Under the pieces are notes generated by a model. The model saw only the letters and a program-made list of their open reading frames with translations, did no database searches and was not told the origin of the DNA. Shown here in pieces: positions 1,984 through 55,513 of a DNA stretch of 64,000 nucleotides; the stretch's first letter is position 1, and each line of letters starts with the position of its first letter. The position numbers and the translations under genes were made by a program. The stretch is from NCBI GenBank assembly GCA_011050235.1, contig DRGC01000032.1, positions 30,042-94,041 on the forward strand. Direction: 5' to 3'. The stretch is from Phycisphaerae bacterium. GTDB lineage: Bacteria; Planctomycetota; Phycisphaerae; SM23-33.

Positions 1984-2105
1984 CAAAGCTAAAAGCTGAA
2001 AGCTTAAAGCTGAAATTCAAGAACGACCGCCGCGACACGATACCGATTCTTGTTTTCAGCTTTTGTCTTTCAGCTTTAAGCTTTCAGCTTTAAGCTTTTG
2101 TTTCC
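1984..2105. repeat. inverted pair of heptanucleotide tandem arrays (NAAAGCT)x5 ... (TTTNAGC)x7 around a ~35-nt spacer
   Basis: CAAAGCT AAAAGCT GAAAGCT TAAAGCT GAAATTC, then a spacer, then TTTCAGC TTTTGTC TTTCAGC TTTAAGC TTTCAGC TTTAAGC TTTTGTT. It overlaps the stop of the DUF502 gene and lies upstream of the radical SAM gene. Confidence 0.8.
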
Positions 2106-8189: not shown

Positions 8190-9536
8190 CTAGCTCTTTC
8201 TGGTCTTCTTCTTCGTCGCCTTCTTCCGGGCCGTCTTCTTGCCGACCGCTTTCTTACCGGTGGCTTTCTTGCGGGCCGTTTTCTTGTGGGCGGGCCTGGC
8301 GGCGACGCGGGGCTCGAGGATGTACTGTCCGCGGCCGAGGTCGAACGCGTCGTGCACGATGCGCAGGGCCTTCTTGGCGGACCTGGCCTCGACCAGACAG
8401 GAGATCTTGATCTCGCTGGTGCTGATGTTCTCGATGTTCACGCCGGCCTTGCCCAAGGCGCTGAACATCTTGAAGGCGACACCCGCGTGCGTTCGCATGC
8501 CGCCGCCAACGATGGCAACCTTCGCGAGGTGATCTTCGTAGACGGCCTTGCACTTGAGCTTCTTCGACAGATCGTTGACGACCTTCCGGATGTCCGGCAG
8601 GTCGGTCAGGTCGATGGTGAACGACACGGTGGCCGTCTTTCGGTCGACGACGGTCTGGATGATGTCGTCGACAATGATGTTGTGGTTGGCGACGACCTGG
8701 AAAATCTTTGCGACGATGCCGGGCCTGTTGGGCGTTCCGGTCAGGGTCACGCGCCCAAGCTTTTCCTTGAGGGCCGCGCCCACGACGACGATTCTCTCCA
8801 TGGCTTCGGTGGCAGGCACGATCAGGGTTCCTTTCCTGTTATGGTTGGTGTTGCGAACGTGGATCGGGACGTTGTGGTGCATGGCGAGTTCGACGGCGCG
8901 GTCCTGCAGGACGGCGGCGCCGAGGCCGGCCAGTTGGAGCATCTCCTCGTAGCTGATGCGGTCGACCTTGCGGGCGTTGGGGACGATTCGCGGGTCGGCG
9001 GTGAACACGCCGTCGACGTCGGTGAAGTTCTCGCACACGCCTCCCAACGCGGCCGCCATCGCCACCATCGACACATTGCTTCCGCCGCGCCCCAGCGTGG
9101 TGACGTGCCCATCGGGCGTGATGCCCTGAAAGCCCGCCACGATCACGATCCGTCCGGCGCGGAGATGTTCGCGGACGCGTTCGGCGTCGATGCTCTTGAC
9201 GCGGGCCCGCATGTGGACCTCGTCGGTGATCAGGCGAATCTGCGCCCCGGTCAGGCTGATCGCATCGACGCCGCGCGTGTGCAGCGTCATCGCCATCAGG
9301 GCGATGGTCACCTGCTCGCCGGTGGCCAGCAGTTGATCCATCTCGCGGCGCGGCGGGTCCTTGGTGATCTGGTGGGCCAAGTCGATCAGGGCGTCGGTCC
9401 TCTTGCCCATGGCCGAGACCACCACCACAACCTGGTTGCCCGCACGCCTGCACCGGATGGCCCGGTCCGCCGCCCGCCGAATCTTGTCGGCGTCGGCGAT
9501 ACTCGTGCCGCCGAATTTCATTACGACCACGCTCAT
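8190..9536 (-). CDS. lysC: aspartate kinase with an unusual Lys-rich C-terminal tail
   Basis: MKFGGTSIADADKIRRAA..VVVVSAMGKRTDALIDLA, plus ACT domains. Start placed at MSVVVMKFGG; the upstream extension in the ORF track is rejected. The C-terminal ~40 aa are KK(T/A)ARKKATGKK repeats. Confidence 0.85.
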   Translation of the reverse strand: MSVVVMKFGGTSIADADKIRRAADRAIRCRRAGNQVVVVVSAMGKRTDALIDLAHQITKDPPRREMDQLLATGEQVTIALMAMTLHTRGVDAISLTGAQIRLITDEVHMRARVKSIDAERVREHLRAGRIVIVAGFQGITPDGHVTTLGRGGSNVSMVAMAAALGGVCENFTDVDGVFTADPRIVPNARKVDRISYEEMLQLAGLGAAVLQDRAVELAMHHNVPIHVRNTNHNRKGTLIVPATEAMERIVVVGAALKEKLGRVTLTGTPNRPGIVAKIFQVVANHNIIVDDIIQTVVDRKTATVSFTIDLTDLPDIRKVVNDLSKKLKCKAVYEDHLAKVAIVGGGMRTHAGVAFKMFSALGKAGVNIENISTSEIKISCLVEARSAKKALRIVHDAFDLGRGQYILEPRVAARPAHKKTARKKATGKKAVGKKTARKKATKKKTRKS

Positions 9537-21184: not shown

Positions 21185-21342
21185 TAGTCCGTAACTTGGT
21201 GGGTGGCACAGGTTGCTTGCAACCTGTGTTGCTACACCTACACGGCTTGCAAGCAAGCCGTGGCACCCAGCTTTCCTGCGGACCGGAGGCGAGTCGCGTC
21301 GAAACTCATCGGGGCGATCGGCCGATAAGTAAGTACCCCCCC

Positions 21343-48838: not shown

Positions 48839-50275
<1,437 letters not shown>

Positions 50276-50276
50276 A

Positions 50277-50405
50277 GATTGCGGATTGCGGATTGGCGAT
50301 TGCGGATTGAAAAACAAAGTGCGGCGGGTCACTGACTCCGCCGCACGTCGTTTCTTCTATCTTCTGTTCAATCCGCAATCCGAAATCCGAAATCCACAAT
50401 CGCAA
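50277..50405. repeat. inverted pair of heptanucleotide tandem arrays (GATTGCG)x5 ... (CGCAATC-type)x5 flanking the ahcY terminator hairpin
   Basis: GATTGCG GATTGCG GATTGGC GATTGCG GATTG, then the terminator, then CAATCCG CAATCCG AAATCCG AAATCCA CAATCGC. It fills the 130-nt gap between convergent ahcY and the REC-GAF regulator. Confidence 0.85.
50319..50368 (+). terminator. rho-independent terminator of ahcY
   Basis: A perfect 9-bp GC stem (GTGCGGCGG...CCGCCGCAC) with a 10-nt loop is followed by the T-rich tract GTCGTTTCTTCTATCTTCTGTT. It lies 44 nt after the ahcY stop. Confidence 0.6.
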
Positions 50406-51404
50406 TTATTCGTTTCGCCGGACGGCGACCGCTGTTGGGCGGGCGGTCATTTCGGCCAGCGATATGTCCAGATCGGTGAAAGGCTGTTCGCCTTTGCGAT
50501 AGAGGACCACCAGGCCGATCAGTTCGCCCGGCTCGGGGACCAGCGGCAGCAGCAGAACGCTCAGGCCGGGCAGGTAGCGGCGGATCTGCTGGGGGAACTG
50601 CTCAGCCTCGTCGCCGGCATCCATCACCATGCACTGAGGGCTGGTCAGAGCGATCTCGACCAAGGGGAGACAAAGGGCCTGGCAAAACTCCAGTTGGTCG
50701 GGGGTGGGCACACCGAACCGCCCCATCACGTGCAGCTCGGCGTCTTCGTTGCAGACCAACGCTATGCCGTGGACCGGGCCGCTGCGACGAACGAACAACT
50801 GGAACAGCGAGCGGAACACGTCGTCGTCGCACTTGGCCCCGATCAACTCTCCCTGGTAGCCGATCACGATCTGCTGGAGGGCCATCTGGCTGCTGAGCGC
50901 CTTGTAGGCGGCCGTCAGGTCGGCGCACGTGCTGTCGAGCTGTTGGCCTATCTGCTTGCGTTCGATGTTGACCCCCCGGGCCAGGTCGCGCAGTTTCAGT
51001 GTGCGTTGCTTCGTGCGGTGTCGGGCGCTGCGGCGCTCGAGTTCCTGGCGAACCGTCATTCTCAGGCGGTCCATGTCCAGCGGCTTGGTCATCAGCTCGA
51101 CCAGGCCGATCTGGGTCGCCTCGGCGACGGCCTCGGTGTCGTCGCAGCCGGTGATGACGACCGCCGGAATGTCGCCGATGGTCTCGCGCAGGTGCGCGAT
51201 GACATCCAGGCCGGTGTGGTCACCCAGCCGAAGGTCCGCGACGATCAGGTCGACCGGACCATCGGCCGCCAGGGCCAGCGCCTCGTCTTCCGAGGCCGCG
51301 GCCAGCACCTGAAGGTCATCGGCGGCCAGCGCGTCGGTCAGAAGTTCCCTGAGCTCGGGTTCGTCGTCGACCACCAATACGCGTGCGGTCTGATTGCCTG
51401 CCAA
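50406..51404 (-). CDS. response regulator, N-terminal REC domain + C-terminal GAF-like domain
   Basis: VLVVDDEPELRELL..DLIVADLRLGD..G is a CheY-like receiver with a phospho-acceptor Asp. The C-terminal ~170 aa are GAF-like. Confidence 0.6.
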   Translation of the reverse strand: MAGNQTARVLVVDDEPELRELLTDALAADDLQVLAAASEDEALALAADGPVDLIVADLRLGDHTGLDVIAHLRETIGDIPAVVITGCDDTEAVAEATQIGLVELMTKPLDMDRLRMTVRQELERRSARHRTKQRTLKLRDLARGVNIERKQIGQQLDSTCADLTAAYKALSSQMALQQIVIGYQGELIGAKCDDDVFRSLFQLFVRRSGPVHGIALVCNEDAELHVMGRFGVPTPDQLEFCQALCLPLVEIALTSPQCMVMDAGDEAEQFPQQIRRYLPGLSVLLLPLVPEPGELIGLVVLYRKGEQPFTDLDISLAEMTARPTAVAVRRNE

Positions 51405-52043
51405 CGTCAGTCCTCCTGCGCCCCATCGAGGGCGCTCGGGTCAAATAGACGATCCACCGAAACGCTCAAGCGTCATTGGCGAGCGGGCGGCCCAGGTGTC
51501 AGGGCGGCCCGCCTGTCGCCTCCGTTCTAGATATCGGACTCGCAGGAAGCATCTTGAGTTTGCGCTGCGGAACTTTTCAGCCTAAATATCCCACCGTAAG
51601 GGCCGTCCAAAGAAAAACTTACAAGGGCCCGCTCTGCCCCTAGAGTGATGGGCACAGTCGTGTAGGCACGCCGGGGCTCTGCCAGCCGATGGCACAATGA
51701 TCGGGTGCCACGCTCTTGCGCTGTGTGCAAAAGCGTGAAGGGACCTGAACAAACACGCTTCTGCAAGTCCCGACGTATCCCGACGTACATCGGGAGGATG
51801 GCGCCCCCACCTGAGCTATGTAATATCGGAATCTGCCCTTAGCGGTCTTACGTAAGTTTGTAGCGGTTATGGTGGAAGATGGGCAAGTCGTGGCCTTACC
51901 CGTTGCCTCCCACCCGAGCTCAGCATATCAGAGCCCAACTGTCGCGGCCGGCCGATACCTCATGTGCCGATGTATCGTTCCGTTCGACCGAGATACCCCC
52001 TTTCCCAAGACCGGCAAGCGTGCCCCCACCTGCAGAGCCGTTG

Positions 52044-52078
52044 CATTGGACATTGGACATTGGACATTGGGCATTCGG
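52044..52078 (+). repeat. heptanucleotide tandem repeat array (CATTGGR)x5
   Basis: CATTGGA CATTGGA CATTGGG CATTCGG CATTGGG, immediately 3' of the minus-strand regulator gene. Seen directly in the sequence. Confidence 0.8.
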
Positions 52079-52113
52079 CATTGGGACGCCCCCCCGTCAA
52101 CCGGCCCCCGCCC

Positions 52114-53620: not shown

Positions 53621-55513
53621 TTACCCATCTTTACCGGCGGCGGCCGGTTGGCCGCGATTTTCGGCGCCGGCCAGGTAAATGGCAAGGACCGTCACATCGG
53701 CCGGCGTGATGCCGCTGACCCGCAGGGCCTGGCCCAGGGTGCGCGGGCGGATGTCGGTGAGCTTCTCCCCCGCCTCGCGCCGCAGGTGGCTGATCGCGGC
53801 GTAGTCGACCTCCGGCGGGATGAGCTTGGCGTCCAGGTCCTGCATCTGCCGCAGGGCCGTCTCCTGCTTGGCCAGGTACCCGGCGTAACGCAGATCGATC
53901 GTCAGCGATTCCACCGCATCAGGCTCGGCCTCGGCCAGTCGCCGCAATCGATCGGCCGTCGCGTCGTCGGCCTTGGCGAAAACTCGCTCGGCCGTCATGT
54001 CGGGCTGCTGGAAGTAATCGGCCAGCGTCTTGCCCTCGCACCGCGCAGCCGCCAGGAGGTCGCCGGCCTCATCGACGGCCGCCCCGCCCTGCTGGAAGCG
54101 CGCCCACCGATCGTCGGCCACCAGACCGACGGTCCGGCCGAGGTCGGTCAGCCGTCGGTCCGCGTTGTCGGCCCGCAGGTGCAGGCGATGCTCGGCCCGG
54201 CTGGTGAACATGCGGTACGGCTCGGTGACGCCCTTGGTGACCAGGTCATCGATCATCACGCCGATGTAGGCCTGGTCGCGCCGCAGGACCAGCGACTCGC
54301 GACCGGACGCGGCGAGGGCGGCATTGACGCCCGCGATCAGCCCCTGGGCGGCGGCCTCCTCGTAACCGGTCGTGCCGTTGATCTGCCCGGCCAGGTACAG
54401 GCCGCCTGTGGCTTTCGTCTCGAGCGTCGCCTGAAGCTGTGTCGGCGGGGCGAAGTCGTACTCGATCGCGTAGCCGTACCGCACTATCTCCGCCCGCTCC
54501 AGCCCGGCGATGTGATGGACGATGATCTCCTGCACATCCTCCGGCAGCGACGTGGAGATGCCGTTGACGTAGACCCAGTTGGTGGTTCGGCCCTCCGGTT
54601 CGATGAAGATCTGATGGCTCGTCTTGTCGGCGAAGCGCTGGATCTTCGTCTCCAGCGACGGGCAGTACCGCGGGCCCACGGCCTGAATCTGGCCGGTGTA
54701 GAGCGGGGCGCGGTGGAGGTTGGCGCGAATGACGTCGTGGACTTTCTCGTTGGTCGCCGTGATCCAGCACGGAATCTGATCCACGGCCAGCCGGCCGGTC
54801 ATGAACGAAAACGGCCGGGGGTGATCGTCGCCATCCTGCCGCTCGCAGCGGTCGGTGTCGATGGTCTCGGCCGCCAGCCGCGGACACGTACCGGTCTTGA
54901 GTCGCTGCAACTGGAGCCCACAGCGGACCAGGCTGTCGCCAAGCTTCTCGGCCGCCGGCTGGCCGTAGCGCCCGCCGGGCCAGGTGGTCTCGCCAAGGTG
55001 CATCAGGCCGCTCAGGAAGGTGCCGCTGGTGACGATGACAGCTCGGGAGCGGAATGTTGAATGCTGAATGCTAAATGCTGAATGGTCATCGCCACACGCC
55101 AAGCTAACACCGCAGACGCAGCCGCCTTCGGTGAGGATGTCAGTGACTTCCCCGGCAATGATCGTCAGGTTGGGCGTTTGGCGCAGGGCATCCTGGACCC
55201 ACGCGGCGTAGGCGTGGCGGTCGGATTGGCAGCGCGGGCCCCAGACGGCCGGGCCTTTCGAGCGGTTGAGCATGCGGAACTGAATCCCCGTCGCGTCGGC
55301 CGCCAGCGCCATCAGCCCACCGAGCGCGTCGATCTCTCGAACGATCTGCCCCTTGCCCACCCCGCCGATCGCCGGATTGCACGCCATCGCGGCAATCTCG
55401 GCCTCATCGAGAGTAATCAGCGCCGTCTGCGCCCCAAGCCGCGCCGCCGCATGGGCGGCCTCGGCCCCGGCATGGCCGCCGCCGATGACGATGACGTCAA
55501 AATCACAAGCCAT
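53621..55513 (-). CDS. mnmG: tRNA uridine 5-carboxymethylaminomethyl modification enzyme MnmG (GidA), with in-frame insertion encoded by a heptamer repeat
   Basis: MACDFDVIVIGGGHAGAEAA..., an FAD-binding fold and a length of 630 aa. The extra segment DDHSAFSIQHST is encoded by 55053..55086. Confidence 0.85.
   Translation of the reverse strand: MACDFDVIVIGGGHAGAEAAHAAARLGAQTALITLDEAEIAAMACNPAIGGVGKGQIVREIDALGGLMALAADATGIQFRMLNRSKGPAVWGPRCQSDRHAYAAWVQDALRQTPNLTIIAGEVTDILTEGGCVCGVSLACGDDHSAFSIQHSTFRSRAVIVTSGTFLSGLMHLGETTWPGGRYGQPAAEKLGDSLVRCGLQLQRLKTGTCPRLAAETIDTDRCERQDGDDHPRPFSFMTGRLAVDQIPCWITATNEKVHDVIRANLHRAPLYTGQIQAVGPRYCPSLETKIQRFADKTSHQIFIEPEGRTTNWVYVNGISTSLPEDVQEIIVHHIAGLERAEIVRYGYAIEYDFAPPTQLQATLETKATGGLYLAGQINGTTGYEEAAAQGLIAGVNAALAASGRESLVLRRDQAYIGVMIDDLVTKGVTEPYRMFTSRAEHRLHLRADNADRRLTDLGRTVGLVADDRWARFQQGGAAVDEAGDLLAAARCEGKTLADYFQQPDMTAERVFAKADDATADRLRRLAEAEPDAVESLTIDLRYAGYLAKQETALRQMQDLDAKLIPPEVDYAAISHLRREAGEKLTDIRPRTLGQALRVSGITPADVTVLAIYLAGAENRGQPAAAGKDG
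55053..55086. repeat. heptanucleotide tandem array (GAATGCT)x5 inside the mnmG coding sequence
   Basis: GAATGTT GAATGCT GAATGCT AAATGCT GAATGG. On the minus strand it reads in frame as HSAFSIQHSTF. Confidence 0.8.

Follow-up and report, generated by a model that had tools for sequence, protein, structure and literature searches.

Heptamer arrays facing each other across a predicted shared terminator between two convergent genes of a Phycisphaerae bacterium

The 130-nt space that separates the stop codons of ahcY and of a convergent gene for a REC-GAF response regulator, in an uncultured Phycisphaerae bacterium, is completely filled by two tandem heptamer arrays in opposite orientation and by a hairpin element placed between them. 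We have analyzed this gap within a stretch of 64,000 nt of genomic DNA (contig DRGC01000032.1, positions 30,042 to 94,041; hereafter the window), and the question that it raises is whether it holds a single large palindrome or two repeats that belong each to its own gene. The answer that we favor, and to which we give an even chance of being correct, is that two gene-linked 3' modules, both oriented in the sense of their genes, face each other across one shared bidirectional terminator. The gap would then look like one large palindrome because the genes converge, which makes the two modules reverse complements of each other. This reading is based on the fact that both arrays obey two regularities found for such repeats in related loci, which are to abut a stop codon and to have the G-rich strand as the sense strand.

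The space between ahcY and the REC-GAF gene

The ahcY gene (S-adenosyl-L-homocysteine hydrolase; Pfam AdoHcyase, E 1e-145) lies on the plus strand at 48839..50275, an identical gene of 478 aa being called on the 358,602-bp source contig from a JGI metagenome, and ends with a TAA codon at 50273-50275. The left array, (GATTGCG)x4.7, begins 1 nt past this codon (50277..50309, plus strand; period 7, 84% matches, score 52) and reads GAUUGCG in the sense of the ahcY mRNA, with more G than C on the sense strand. On the other side, the REC-GAF gene (Pfam Response_reg and GAF) occupies 50406..51404 of the minus strand, with a TTG start at 51404, and its stop codon at 50406-50408 is directly adjoined by the right array (50369..50406, minus strand; 5.6 copies of the unit CAATCCG, period 7, 84% matches, score 48; stop distance -1). 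The minus strand of this array is TTGCGATTGTGGATTTCGGATTTCGGATTGCGGATTG, which is again of the GAUUGCG type and richer in G than in C in the sense of the REC-GAF mRNA. All repeat calls were made with Tandem Repeats Finder (TRF), and the gene identities in the window were taken from Pfam. Six period-7 arrays with a TRF score of at least 45 are present in the window, compared to none in 30 shuffles that preserved local composition, and the copy numbers of the arrays in the window range from 4.4 to 6.4.

Between the two arrays, a GC-rich hairpin was identified by a terminator scan at 50319..50346, with the structure GTGCGGCGG-loop-CCGCCGCAC and an inner GTC/GAC extension, preceded by AAAAACAAAG and followed by GTCGTTTCTTCTATCTTCTGTT. 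On the plus strand the scan gave 10 pairs, 8 of them GC, and the tail GTCGTTTCTT, and on the minus strand CTTTGTTTTT comes after this stem. The A-rich tract AAAAACAAA (50310..50318), as read from the sequence, would serve as the T-tract for minus-strand transcription, and the T-rich tract at 50347..50368 would provide the U-tract for the transcription of ahcY in an interrupted form, as it is broken up on the plus strand and has no clean run of T. The whole center of the gap (50310-50368), including the loop, is itself palindromic. A GC-rich stem-loop with a T/U-rich tract is thus found on each of the transcribed strands, located just 3' of the convergent stop codons, and its stem has undergone compensatory changes in relatives. 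Taken together, these features show that the gap holds one bidirectional hairpin of the intrinsic type, the predicted common terminator of ahcY and the REC-GAF gene. Ordinary bidirectional terminators likewise consist of a GC stem-loop that separates convergent stop codons and has A-rich DNA on its upstream side and T-rich DNA on its downstream side, but they lack tandem-repeat arms that extend the complementarity to both stop codons. A search of Rfam 15 at the gathering score gave no match in the whole window, and for positions 50200-50480 it returned only matches at chance level (E>1).

The history of the gap was followed in 166 related loci (Phycisphaerae, 1.84 Mb), which together with 48 viral stretches (460 kb) also form the survey set for the arrays; the labels L002, L003 and so on designate individual related or viral loci. 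Orthologs of the REC-GAF regulator are 44-98% identical across Phycisphaerae, the homologs being annotated as Phycisphaerae or Planctomycetota metagenome-assembled genomes, and the closer relatives keep the gene order mnmG, flgM-like gene, HTH-REC gene, REC-GAF gene, and convergent ahcY. The 130-nt element of L002, whose regulator is 98% identical, is the same as in the window. A GC hairpin flanked on either side by arrays of the GATTGCG type is also present in L003 (regulator 65% and AhcY 85% identical) and in L004-L007 (62-63% and 84%, respectively). The hairpin stem shows one fully compensatory change in L003 (G-C to A-T) and three fully compensatory double changes in L004. The left array is conserved in L003 and degenerate in L004, and no other part of the gap is as well conserved among the window, L003, and L004 as the right array. 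Just 54-67% of the 4-fold degenerate sites are identical among these three genomes, which is near saturation because third positions are almost only G or C; the array unit GATTGCG is nevertheless unchanged.

More distant relatives with the same convergence (L016, L019, L021, and L023) have a plain A-tract/hairpin/T-tract terminator without arrays, and their hairpins are unrelated to that of the window. A third situation is found in L087, L098, and L128, where a CGATTGY array follows the stop codon of the orthologous regulator without any inverted partner, with a hairpin downstream of it in L098 and L128. Because the distant relatives have the hairpin without the arrays, the terminator is the older feature, and the arrays are a later addition that persists in part of the clade.

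A previous reading of this DNA, made without any comparison (the sequence-only reading), had proposed a convergent-gene terminator hairpin between inverted heptamer arrays, and this proposal is confirmed by TRF, by the terminator scan and by the presence of the stem on both strands. It had also described five units on each side, a perfect hairpin, and a T-tract. Both arrays (4.7 and 5.6 copies) and the hairpin stand, but the units are imperfect, with GGC, TTTCG, and GTG variants, and the T-tract is interrupted. Relatives that keep a hairpin and lack the arrays, which would have implied recent local slippage, do exist in the four distant loci, but the arrays persist in L003 and L004, and the conservation of the same unit there, despite the low identity at 4-fold sites, argues that they are not a product of recent local slippage.

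Length, position and strand of the arrays

Among tandem repeats outside the long open frames of the related loci (1.84 Mb), period 7 leads with 31 arrays, compared to at most 12 for any other period (TRF score of at least 44), and it prevails in the viral stretches as well. The total of period-7 arrays is 84 in the related loci and 151 in the 460 kb of viral stretches, which are IMG/VR contigs and could possibly include misclassified host DNA. Exact (GATTGCG)3 was found in 48 viral-contig stretches, often several times per contig, and a shuffled unit was found in 12 stretches, AAAGCTG in 29, and CATTGGA in none. These viral stretches repeat the architecture of the window, including the inner ends GGATTGAA. 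The unit varies by locus (AAAGCTG, CATTGGA, AATGTCT, CAGGGAC, GTAGCCG, and others), and the CGCAATC family, allowing up to one mismatch, represents 17 of 64 arrays, spread across many genomes, as compared to an expected 1.9%. All these data show that the heptad module type is a lineage-wide feature of Phycisphaerae that is present in some viral contigs.

In both data sets the length of period-7 arrays has a second mode at 29-33 nt, with its peak at 32 nt, and for periods 6, 8, 9, 10, and 11 array length simply decays in a monotonic way. The preferred length corresponds to about 4.6 units, and runs of 2, 3, 4, 5, and 6 GATTGCG units were found 15, 23, 48, 8, and 4 times, respectively. Such a mode is difficult to obtain if the arrays have no function and reflect a tendency of this lineage to slip by 7 nt during replication, surviving only where the DNA is dispensable (e.g. 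3' intergenic space or permissive loops of proteins), as slippage alone predicts a monotonic decay of length. It is true that in many prokaryotes no other long simple repeat is as common as heptamers, which have been ascribed to polymerase slippage (Mrazek 2007, as summarized in MacGregor 2015, PMC4679880), and that close strains differ in the number of units. An unpaired (CATTGGA)x5.9-6.1 array at 52044..52084, located 29 nt 3' of the stop codon of an HTH_17-REC regulator, counts 6.1 units, one more than in L002 (5.1 units, 961-996), a slippage difference between two loci in which the ahcY element is identical, and the AAAGCTG arms of a second element, described below, are 21 nt shorter in L167. 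The absence of arrays from the same gap in several relatives and the many different units also agree with slippage. However, this explanation does not predict the strand specificity relative to the gene, the start at stop codons or the maintenance of the same unit across near-saturated divergence, and we consider it the least probable of those discussed here.

Regarding position, the facing stop codon is overlapped or lies at most 10 nt away in 19 of 48 non-genic arrays, compared to 8% for random intergenic placement, and few arrays were found between divergent genes. When the stop-abutting arrays were read on the mRNA-sense strand, 42 of 52 distinct arrays contained more G than C, 8 contained less, and 2 had equal numbers. 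In the viral contigs, all the stop-abutting GATTGCG arrays outside called open reading frames have GATTGCG in the mRNA sense (the orientation listing covers 21 junctions, some of them from near-duplicate contigs), and the sole stop-abutting GATTGCG array in C-sense (L212 8489) lies inside a called open reading frame. The CATTGGA array of the window is an exception to the strand rule, as it is C-rich in the sense of the HTH_17-REC gene.

The strand bias bears on another possible explanation, in which the arrays would be duplex-DNA platforms on which an abundant protein, either architectural or regulatory, polymerizes along the 7-bp repeats. The omega/ribbon-helix-helix heptad operators are a precedent for a protein acting on repeats of this size. 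The discrete preferred length, the overrepresentation of the CGCAATC family, which recurs several times per viral contig, and the conservation of the unit despite near-saturated synonymous sites would all fit a platform of this kind, as would the opposite-strand repeat pairs of Geobacter metallireducens, which were read as regulator sites (Aklujkar et al. 2009, PMC2700814). A duplex binder, however, should be indifferent to the mRNA sense, which is not what the 42 G-rich arrays among 52 indicate. Moreover, there are many unrelated units, the arrays are found at gene 3' ends and rarely between divergent genes, where promoters lie, and GATTGCG heptamers that occur singly show no enrichment in the window (12 compared to 15.9 expected). 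For these reasons a duplex platform seems quite unlikely to us. The lack of enrichment of isolated heptamers also led us to reject a dispersed single-heptamer binding motif.

The mechanism that we prefer, with moderate confidence, is an action at the single-strand level at gene 3' ends, either in RNA or during transcription, as both the strand specificity and the fixed size of the arrays point there. Each gene has one discrete (GAUUGCG) module of about five units (32-38 nt) directly after its own stop codon and in the sense of its own mRNA. An RNA that ends at the inner hairpin would contain the proximal heptad array in single-stranded form followed by the hairpin, and the two arms would pair into a stem of about 50 bp only in read-through RNA or in extruded DNA. 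The array could function as a platform on which each subunit of a protein occupies about 7 nt, or it could convert read-through RNA into a long duplex. An origin by 7-nt slippage or by an insertion-like gain is the most likely one for the arrays, which would have been kept afterward, and at the DNA level their arms could also recombine, as suggested by the inversion of a spacer described below. No homologs of the possible ligands CsrA and Hfq were detected by tblastn in the window and the fetched loci with the Escherichia coli and Bacillus subtilis queries.

Several observations weigh against two sense-oriented modules. The link between arrays and terminators is real but modest, as a hairpin is found at most 60 nt downstream in 33% of arrays compared to 18-20% in controls. 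Inverted pairs are also present between co-directional genes (window 1984-2105, L003 11549, L065 3422, and L225), and since these are not explained by convergence, pairing must have some cause of its own. The 8 oppositely skewed arrays among the 52 that abut stop codons belong here as well, together with the L065/L064 family, in which the C-rich arm comes first. In fact, a sense-specific RNA motif was first counted out because of the opposite polarity of L065 3' of the orthologous regulator, and it was taken up again because the larger orientation count favors the sense orientation. In addition, the G-side of an array can itself generate TGA, TAA, or TAG, so that part of the orientation bias may be a coding constraint without function. 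The existence of units that differ by locus, such as AAAGCTG, CATTGGA, and AATGTCT, argues against one sequence-specific binding protein. Finally, the genes of the survey come from a simple and crude GC3-based caller that was checked against one JGI gene table only, and the assignment of arrays to open reading frames from stop-free flanks is unreliable in high-GC DNA, protein alignment having verified the mnmG cases only.

Inverted pairs and the element at 1984-2105

An inverted partner within 220 nt was found for 18 of 51 non-genic arrays and a second direct array for 5 of 51, the majority of the arrays being unpaired, and the window contains two inverted pairs. The sequence-only reading had suggested a recurring type of element made of paired inverted arrays around a spacer, which is borne out by the two pairs of the window, by those of the related loci, and by the same architecture in viral contigs. 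Its description of the ahcY gap as one large palindrome holds in part, since the inverted repeat is present, but the basic unit is the single array, which in most cases is unpaired, abuts a stop codon, and is strand-specific.

The two arms of the ahcY gap form the second-longest inverted repeat of the window (35 nt, 86% complementary, 55 nt apart), and the fold energy of a 143-nt stretch containing them is -66.6 kcal/mol on the plus strand (z -8.5) and -73 kcal/mol on the minus strand (z -9.3), values that none of 200 shuffles equaled. It could be that the palindrome is the functional unit, the arrays pairing as RNA or as a DNA cruciform and extending the terminator stem to about 50 bp, which would provide stronger bidirectional termination, protection of 3' ends or the marking of read-through RNA for a double-strand-specific RNase. 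Such marking follows the logic of lambda sib retroregulation. Apart from the very stable predicted stems, the palindrome as a unit accounts well for the excess of inverted over direct partners, for the pairs located between co-directional genes, where convergence cannot make them, and for two copies of a palindrome in L065 that are only 72% identical and yet fold near-perfectly (see below). On the other hand, most arrays have no partner, the arms are only 86% complementary here and their variant units are not mirrored, an RNA terminated at the inner hairpin never includes the distal arm, and L004 retains the right arm but has a decayed left arm. We therefore regard the palindrome as a possible functional unit, but an unlikely one.

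Long palindromes of 180-210 nt were observed in L065 (3410-3610 and 10972-11160), L064 (5640-5850), and L024 (11033-11295), with outer (CGAAATC)n arms, of which the C-rich one comes first, and shared non-repeat inner arms (GAAACAAAYTCCAAAG...). L065, a locus of 21 kb, contains two copies with 72% identity over 178 nt, and each of them folds near-perfectly with -84 to -86 kcal/mol. One palindrome of the L065 type directly follows the stop codon of the orthologous REC-GAF gene. These palindromes look like a dispersed family. A different palindrome, with arms made of tandem 10-nt repeats (ACGCAGATGA / ACGCAGATAA), is found in L172 (1600-1700), 3' of an ortholog of a DUF502 gene of the window (74% identity), so that repeat-armed palindromes are not strictly of period 7.

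The other inverted pair of the window lies between this DUF502 gene (2090-2770) and a radical-SAM gene, both on the minus strand. Its arms (1985-2020/2063-2098) are the longest inverted repeat in the window, with 36 nt and 92% complementarity. According to TRF, the arm next to the radical-SAM gene extends over 1985..2015 (AAAGCTG type as read on the plus strand, 4.4 copies) and the arm next to DUF502 over 2054..2098 (minus strand, 6.4 copies, AAAGCTK in the mRNA sense), with the spacer at 2016..2053. The latter array overlaps the last codons of the DUF502 gene and supplies its stop codon. The element has 119 nt in the window and 98 nt in L167, and the corresponding site is empty in L169, where the two genes are 2 nt apart, and in L170, where they overlap as ATGA (4 nt); neither of these relatives has a counterpart of the spacer. 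Judging from these junctions, this sister element is a lineage-specific gain between otherwise abutting genes.

In L167 and L168, whose flanking genes are ∼94% identical to those of the window, the sister element has the same unit (the 21 nt missing in L167 correspond to the arms), but the 23-nt core of its spacer is inverted. Thus, 21 of 23 positions match when it is flipped (score 36), and in the same orientation the score is 9, with no alignment. The flipped spacer indicates that the arms can act or recombine as DNA inverted repeats. The sister element is identical and in one orientation in 7 independent assemblies of the window strain, so this is a fixed difference between strains with no visible hypervariability. 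In an inverton (invertible switch) the segment would hold a promoter or another oriented signal, with an invertase close by. No sigma-70-like promoter and no terminator-like site were found in the spacer in either orientation, which implies that not every array pair encloses a terminator. There is no invertase among the neighboring Pfam annotations, although no search aimed at invertases was made.

The gain of the sister element brings in the idea of a small non-autonomous mobile element, already contemplated in the sequence-only reading, which could be a mobile or insertion-type element (foldback, miniature inverted-repeat transposable element or REPIN-like) that lands at gene ends. At the class level there is some support for mobility, which comes from the presence of the 98-119-nt element with a novel spacer in the window lineage as opposed to the empty sites of L169 and L170, and from the two L065 copies, whose similarity includes the inner arms and which have related copies in L064 and L024. 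The same idea could account for the arrays with different units that are inserted in frame in one permissive loop of mnmG in ∼10 lineages, and for the presence of arrays in viral contigs. At the ahcY locus mobility is unsupported, because BLAST found no second copy of the spacer and hairpin in the 64 kb or in the fetched loci, and with the full element it retrieved nothing beyond orthologous loci and, at other places, arms of the same unit. Several copies that are near-identical also in their internal sequence, as expected for a miniature inverted-repeat element, are therefore absent at the ahcY locus and present in the L065/L064/L024 subfamily, and presence/absence polymorphism among relatives was found at the sister locus. 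In addition, comparison with the empty sites of L169 and L170 reveals no target-site duplication at the DUF502/radical-SAM junction, the arm units vary by locus and hence there are no shared termini, no transposase is linked to the elements, and the element is identical in the 7 assemblies of the strain. Overall, we consider a mobile element very unlikely as an explanation.

A REP unit is an imperfect palindrome of conserved sequence mobilized by a RAYT transposase, whereas a heptamer array has no internal dyad. No RAYT was linked to the heptamer arrays, its presence not having been searched for. The likeness to REP and REPIN sequences (Bertels and Rainey 2011, PMC3116915) is that both appear as short extragenic singlets or as inverted doublets that form long hairpins at gene 3' ends.

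Heptamer repeats in other lineages and further repeats in this one

The closest precedent for the arrays described here is the GGGAATC heptamer repeats of Xanthomonas. Together with the (GGGGAYT)n repeats of Nostoc, the (GGGAATC)n arrays of Xanthomonas were described as G-rich heptameric simple-sequence repeats, for which the formation of G-quadruplexes was proposed (Rehm et al. 2015, PMC4692102). There are ∼185 GGGAATC arrays per Xanthomonas genome, mostly of four units and 83% positionally conserved between two species, and 70-75 convergent inverted pairs per genome. These arrays overlap a stop codon or lie at most 50 bp from it, with the G-rich strand being the coding strand, and are depleted between divergent genes. 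From one species to another they keep their position and remain single or paired as the case may be, whereas the number of units changes; a minority are inside genes (PMC4692102). The Phycisphaerae arrays share with them the 7-nt unit, the number of about four units, the intergenic location linked to stop codons with the G-rich strand in sense, the scarcity between divergent genes, the frequent and conserved inverted pairs between convergent genes, and the low number inside genes. What they do not share is the presence of four or more tracts of at least three G, since units like AAAGCTG or CATTCAG are devoid of G-runs, and a three-tetrad G-quadruplex is impossible in GATTGCG arrays because these contain only GG doublets, at the unit junctions. 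They also differ in the phylum (Planctomycetota), in the conserved terminator hairpin between the arms, and in the coexistence of many units that are not G-rich.

Heptamer repeats have no accepted function, and the G-quadruplex of Xanthomonas and Nostoc is the only mechanism that has been studied in detail. As the positional rules match those of Xanthomonas although a G-quadruplex cannot apply, a more general cause could be behind these repeats. We found no paper in the literature tying such heptamer repeats to Phycisphaerae. A tentative proposal, which we think has a low probability of holding in its full extent, is that stop-abutting heptad arrays constitute an unrecognized class of cis-acting 3'-end modules present across phyla, of ∼32 nt, G-rich in the sense strand and acting at the single-strand level. 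This class would cover Planctomycetota, the viral contigs with the same arrays, and Xanthomonas with another unit. Its members could function as platforms for an oligomerizing protein (∼7 nt per subunit) or as devices to control R-loops or read-through, and in the form with inverted pairs the spacer would in addition be invertible as DNA. Three features are offered for testing: the length mode of 32 nt, the strand rule, and the inversion of the spacer.

Other known repeats are less similar. The parts of the Geobacter metallireducens genome report that deal with repeats describe paired "global regulator binding sites", in which 3-5 repeats of 7-9 nt stand in tandem on one strand and the partner array on the other, separated by a spacer of variable length. 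These pairs are located in intergenic regions, with 8-24 pairs per class, and a separate family of four heptanucleotide repeats occurs inside genes as well as between them (Aklujkar et al. 2009, PMC2700814). The units of the paired sites are different, the sites were interpreted as putative IHF/HU sites, and no relation to stop codons or strand sense is reported in those parts (PMC2700814). The STRR sequences of cyanobacteria and the TAACTGA repeats of Beggiatoaceae are lineage-typical intergenic tandem heptamers with 2-6 copies per set, for which the single-strand binders S1, Csp, and CsrA have been proposed as ligands (MacGregor 2015, PMC4679880). However, the TAACTGA arrays are located just upstream of start codons and are hardly ever found as inverted pairs, with one indirect repeat in 170 sets (PMC4679880), in contrast to the Phycisphaerae arrays, which follow stop codons and are often paired.

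Heptamer arrays can also have consequences for annotation, as they can supply stop codons and C-terminal residues or be inserted in frame, as in mnmG. In the window, an in-frame array of the CATTCAG type (33 nt, 55052..55084, minus strand) encodes the sequence HSAFSIQHSTF in a surface loop of MnmG, and L003 has a CATTCAG array at the same site. This loop (55040-55110), placed between a "GV" strand and the "AVIVTxGTFL" sequence, is a hypervariable insertion site with 0 to ∼50 extra residues in ∼50 Phycisphaerae relatives. In-frame heptamer arrays with different units occur there in about 10 lineages (e.g. CGACCTT in L035 and L136, CAATTTC in L025, AAATCCG in L078 and L054, and AATCCRC in L101), and L004, L093, L020, and L023 have no insertion. 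In the arrays of this loop the sense strand is for the most part C-rich, in contrast to the arrays located after stop codons, in which it is G-rich.

Some of the IMG/VR viral contigs are dense in heptamer arrays, with ∼1 array per 1-3 kb. L212 and L219 contain 11 arrays in 13 kb each, L215 (4547-4695) and L216 (781-864) belong to the same group, and an array of 21 GATTGCG units was found among these contigs. An array of 11 units in L154 (2967-3046) is located at the extreme end of the contig, and in L024 (∼11110) the repeat region passes into a stretch of N, either masked or an assembly gap. These two cases suggest that long arrays may break assemblies, and if so, metagenome-assembled genomes would show fewer of them than really exist.

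A REP-like double hairpin, TGGGTGGCACAGGTTGCTTGCAACCTGTGT ... ACACGGCTTGCAAGCAAGCCGTGGCACCCA, is located in the window at 21200-21269, just past a stop codon. Related GGGTGCC(A/G)(C/T)GG palindromes are found 3' of genes in L032, L069, and the viral L183 and L224, in the last two directly after a GATTGCG array, and these double hairpins may be a second family of extragenic palindromes of the lineage. With respect to the neighborhood of the REC-GAF gene, 710 nt without any called gene (51405-52113) separate it from the HTH_17-REC gene. The same space is taken by a HisKA/HATPase_c kinase gene in L003 and measures just 275 nt in L004; a HisKA pseudogene in the window was rejected, as the stretch has no similarity to the kinase gene of L003. 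Finally, TRF also detected a tandem repeat of period 15, CGCTTTCTTGCGGGC x5 with 73% matches, at positions 8217-8291 of the window.

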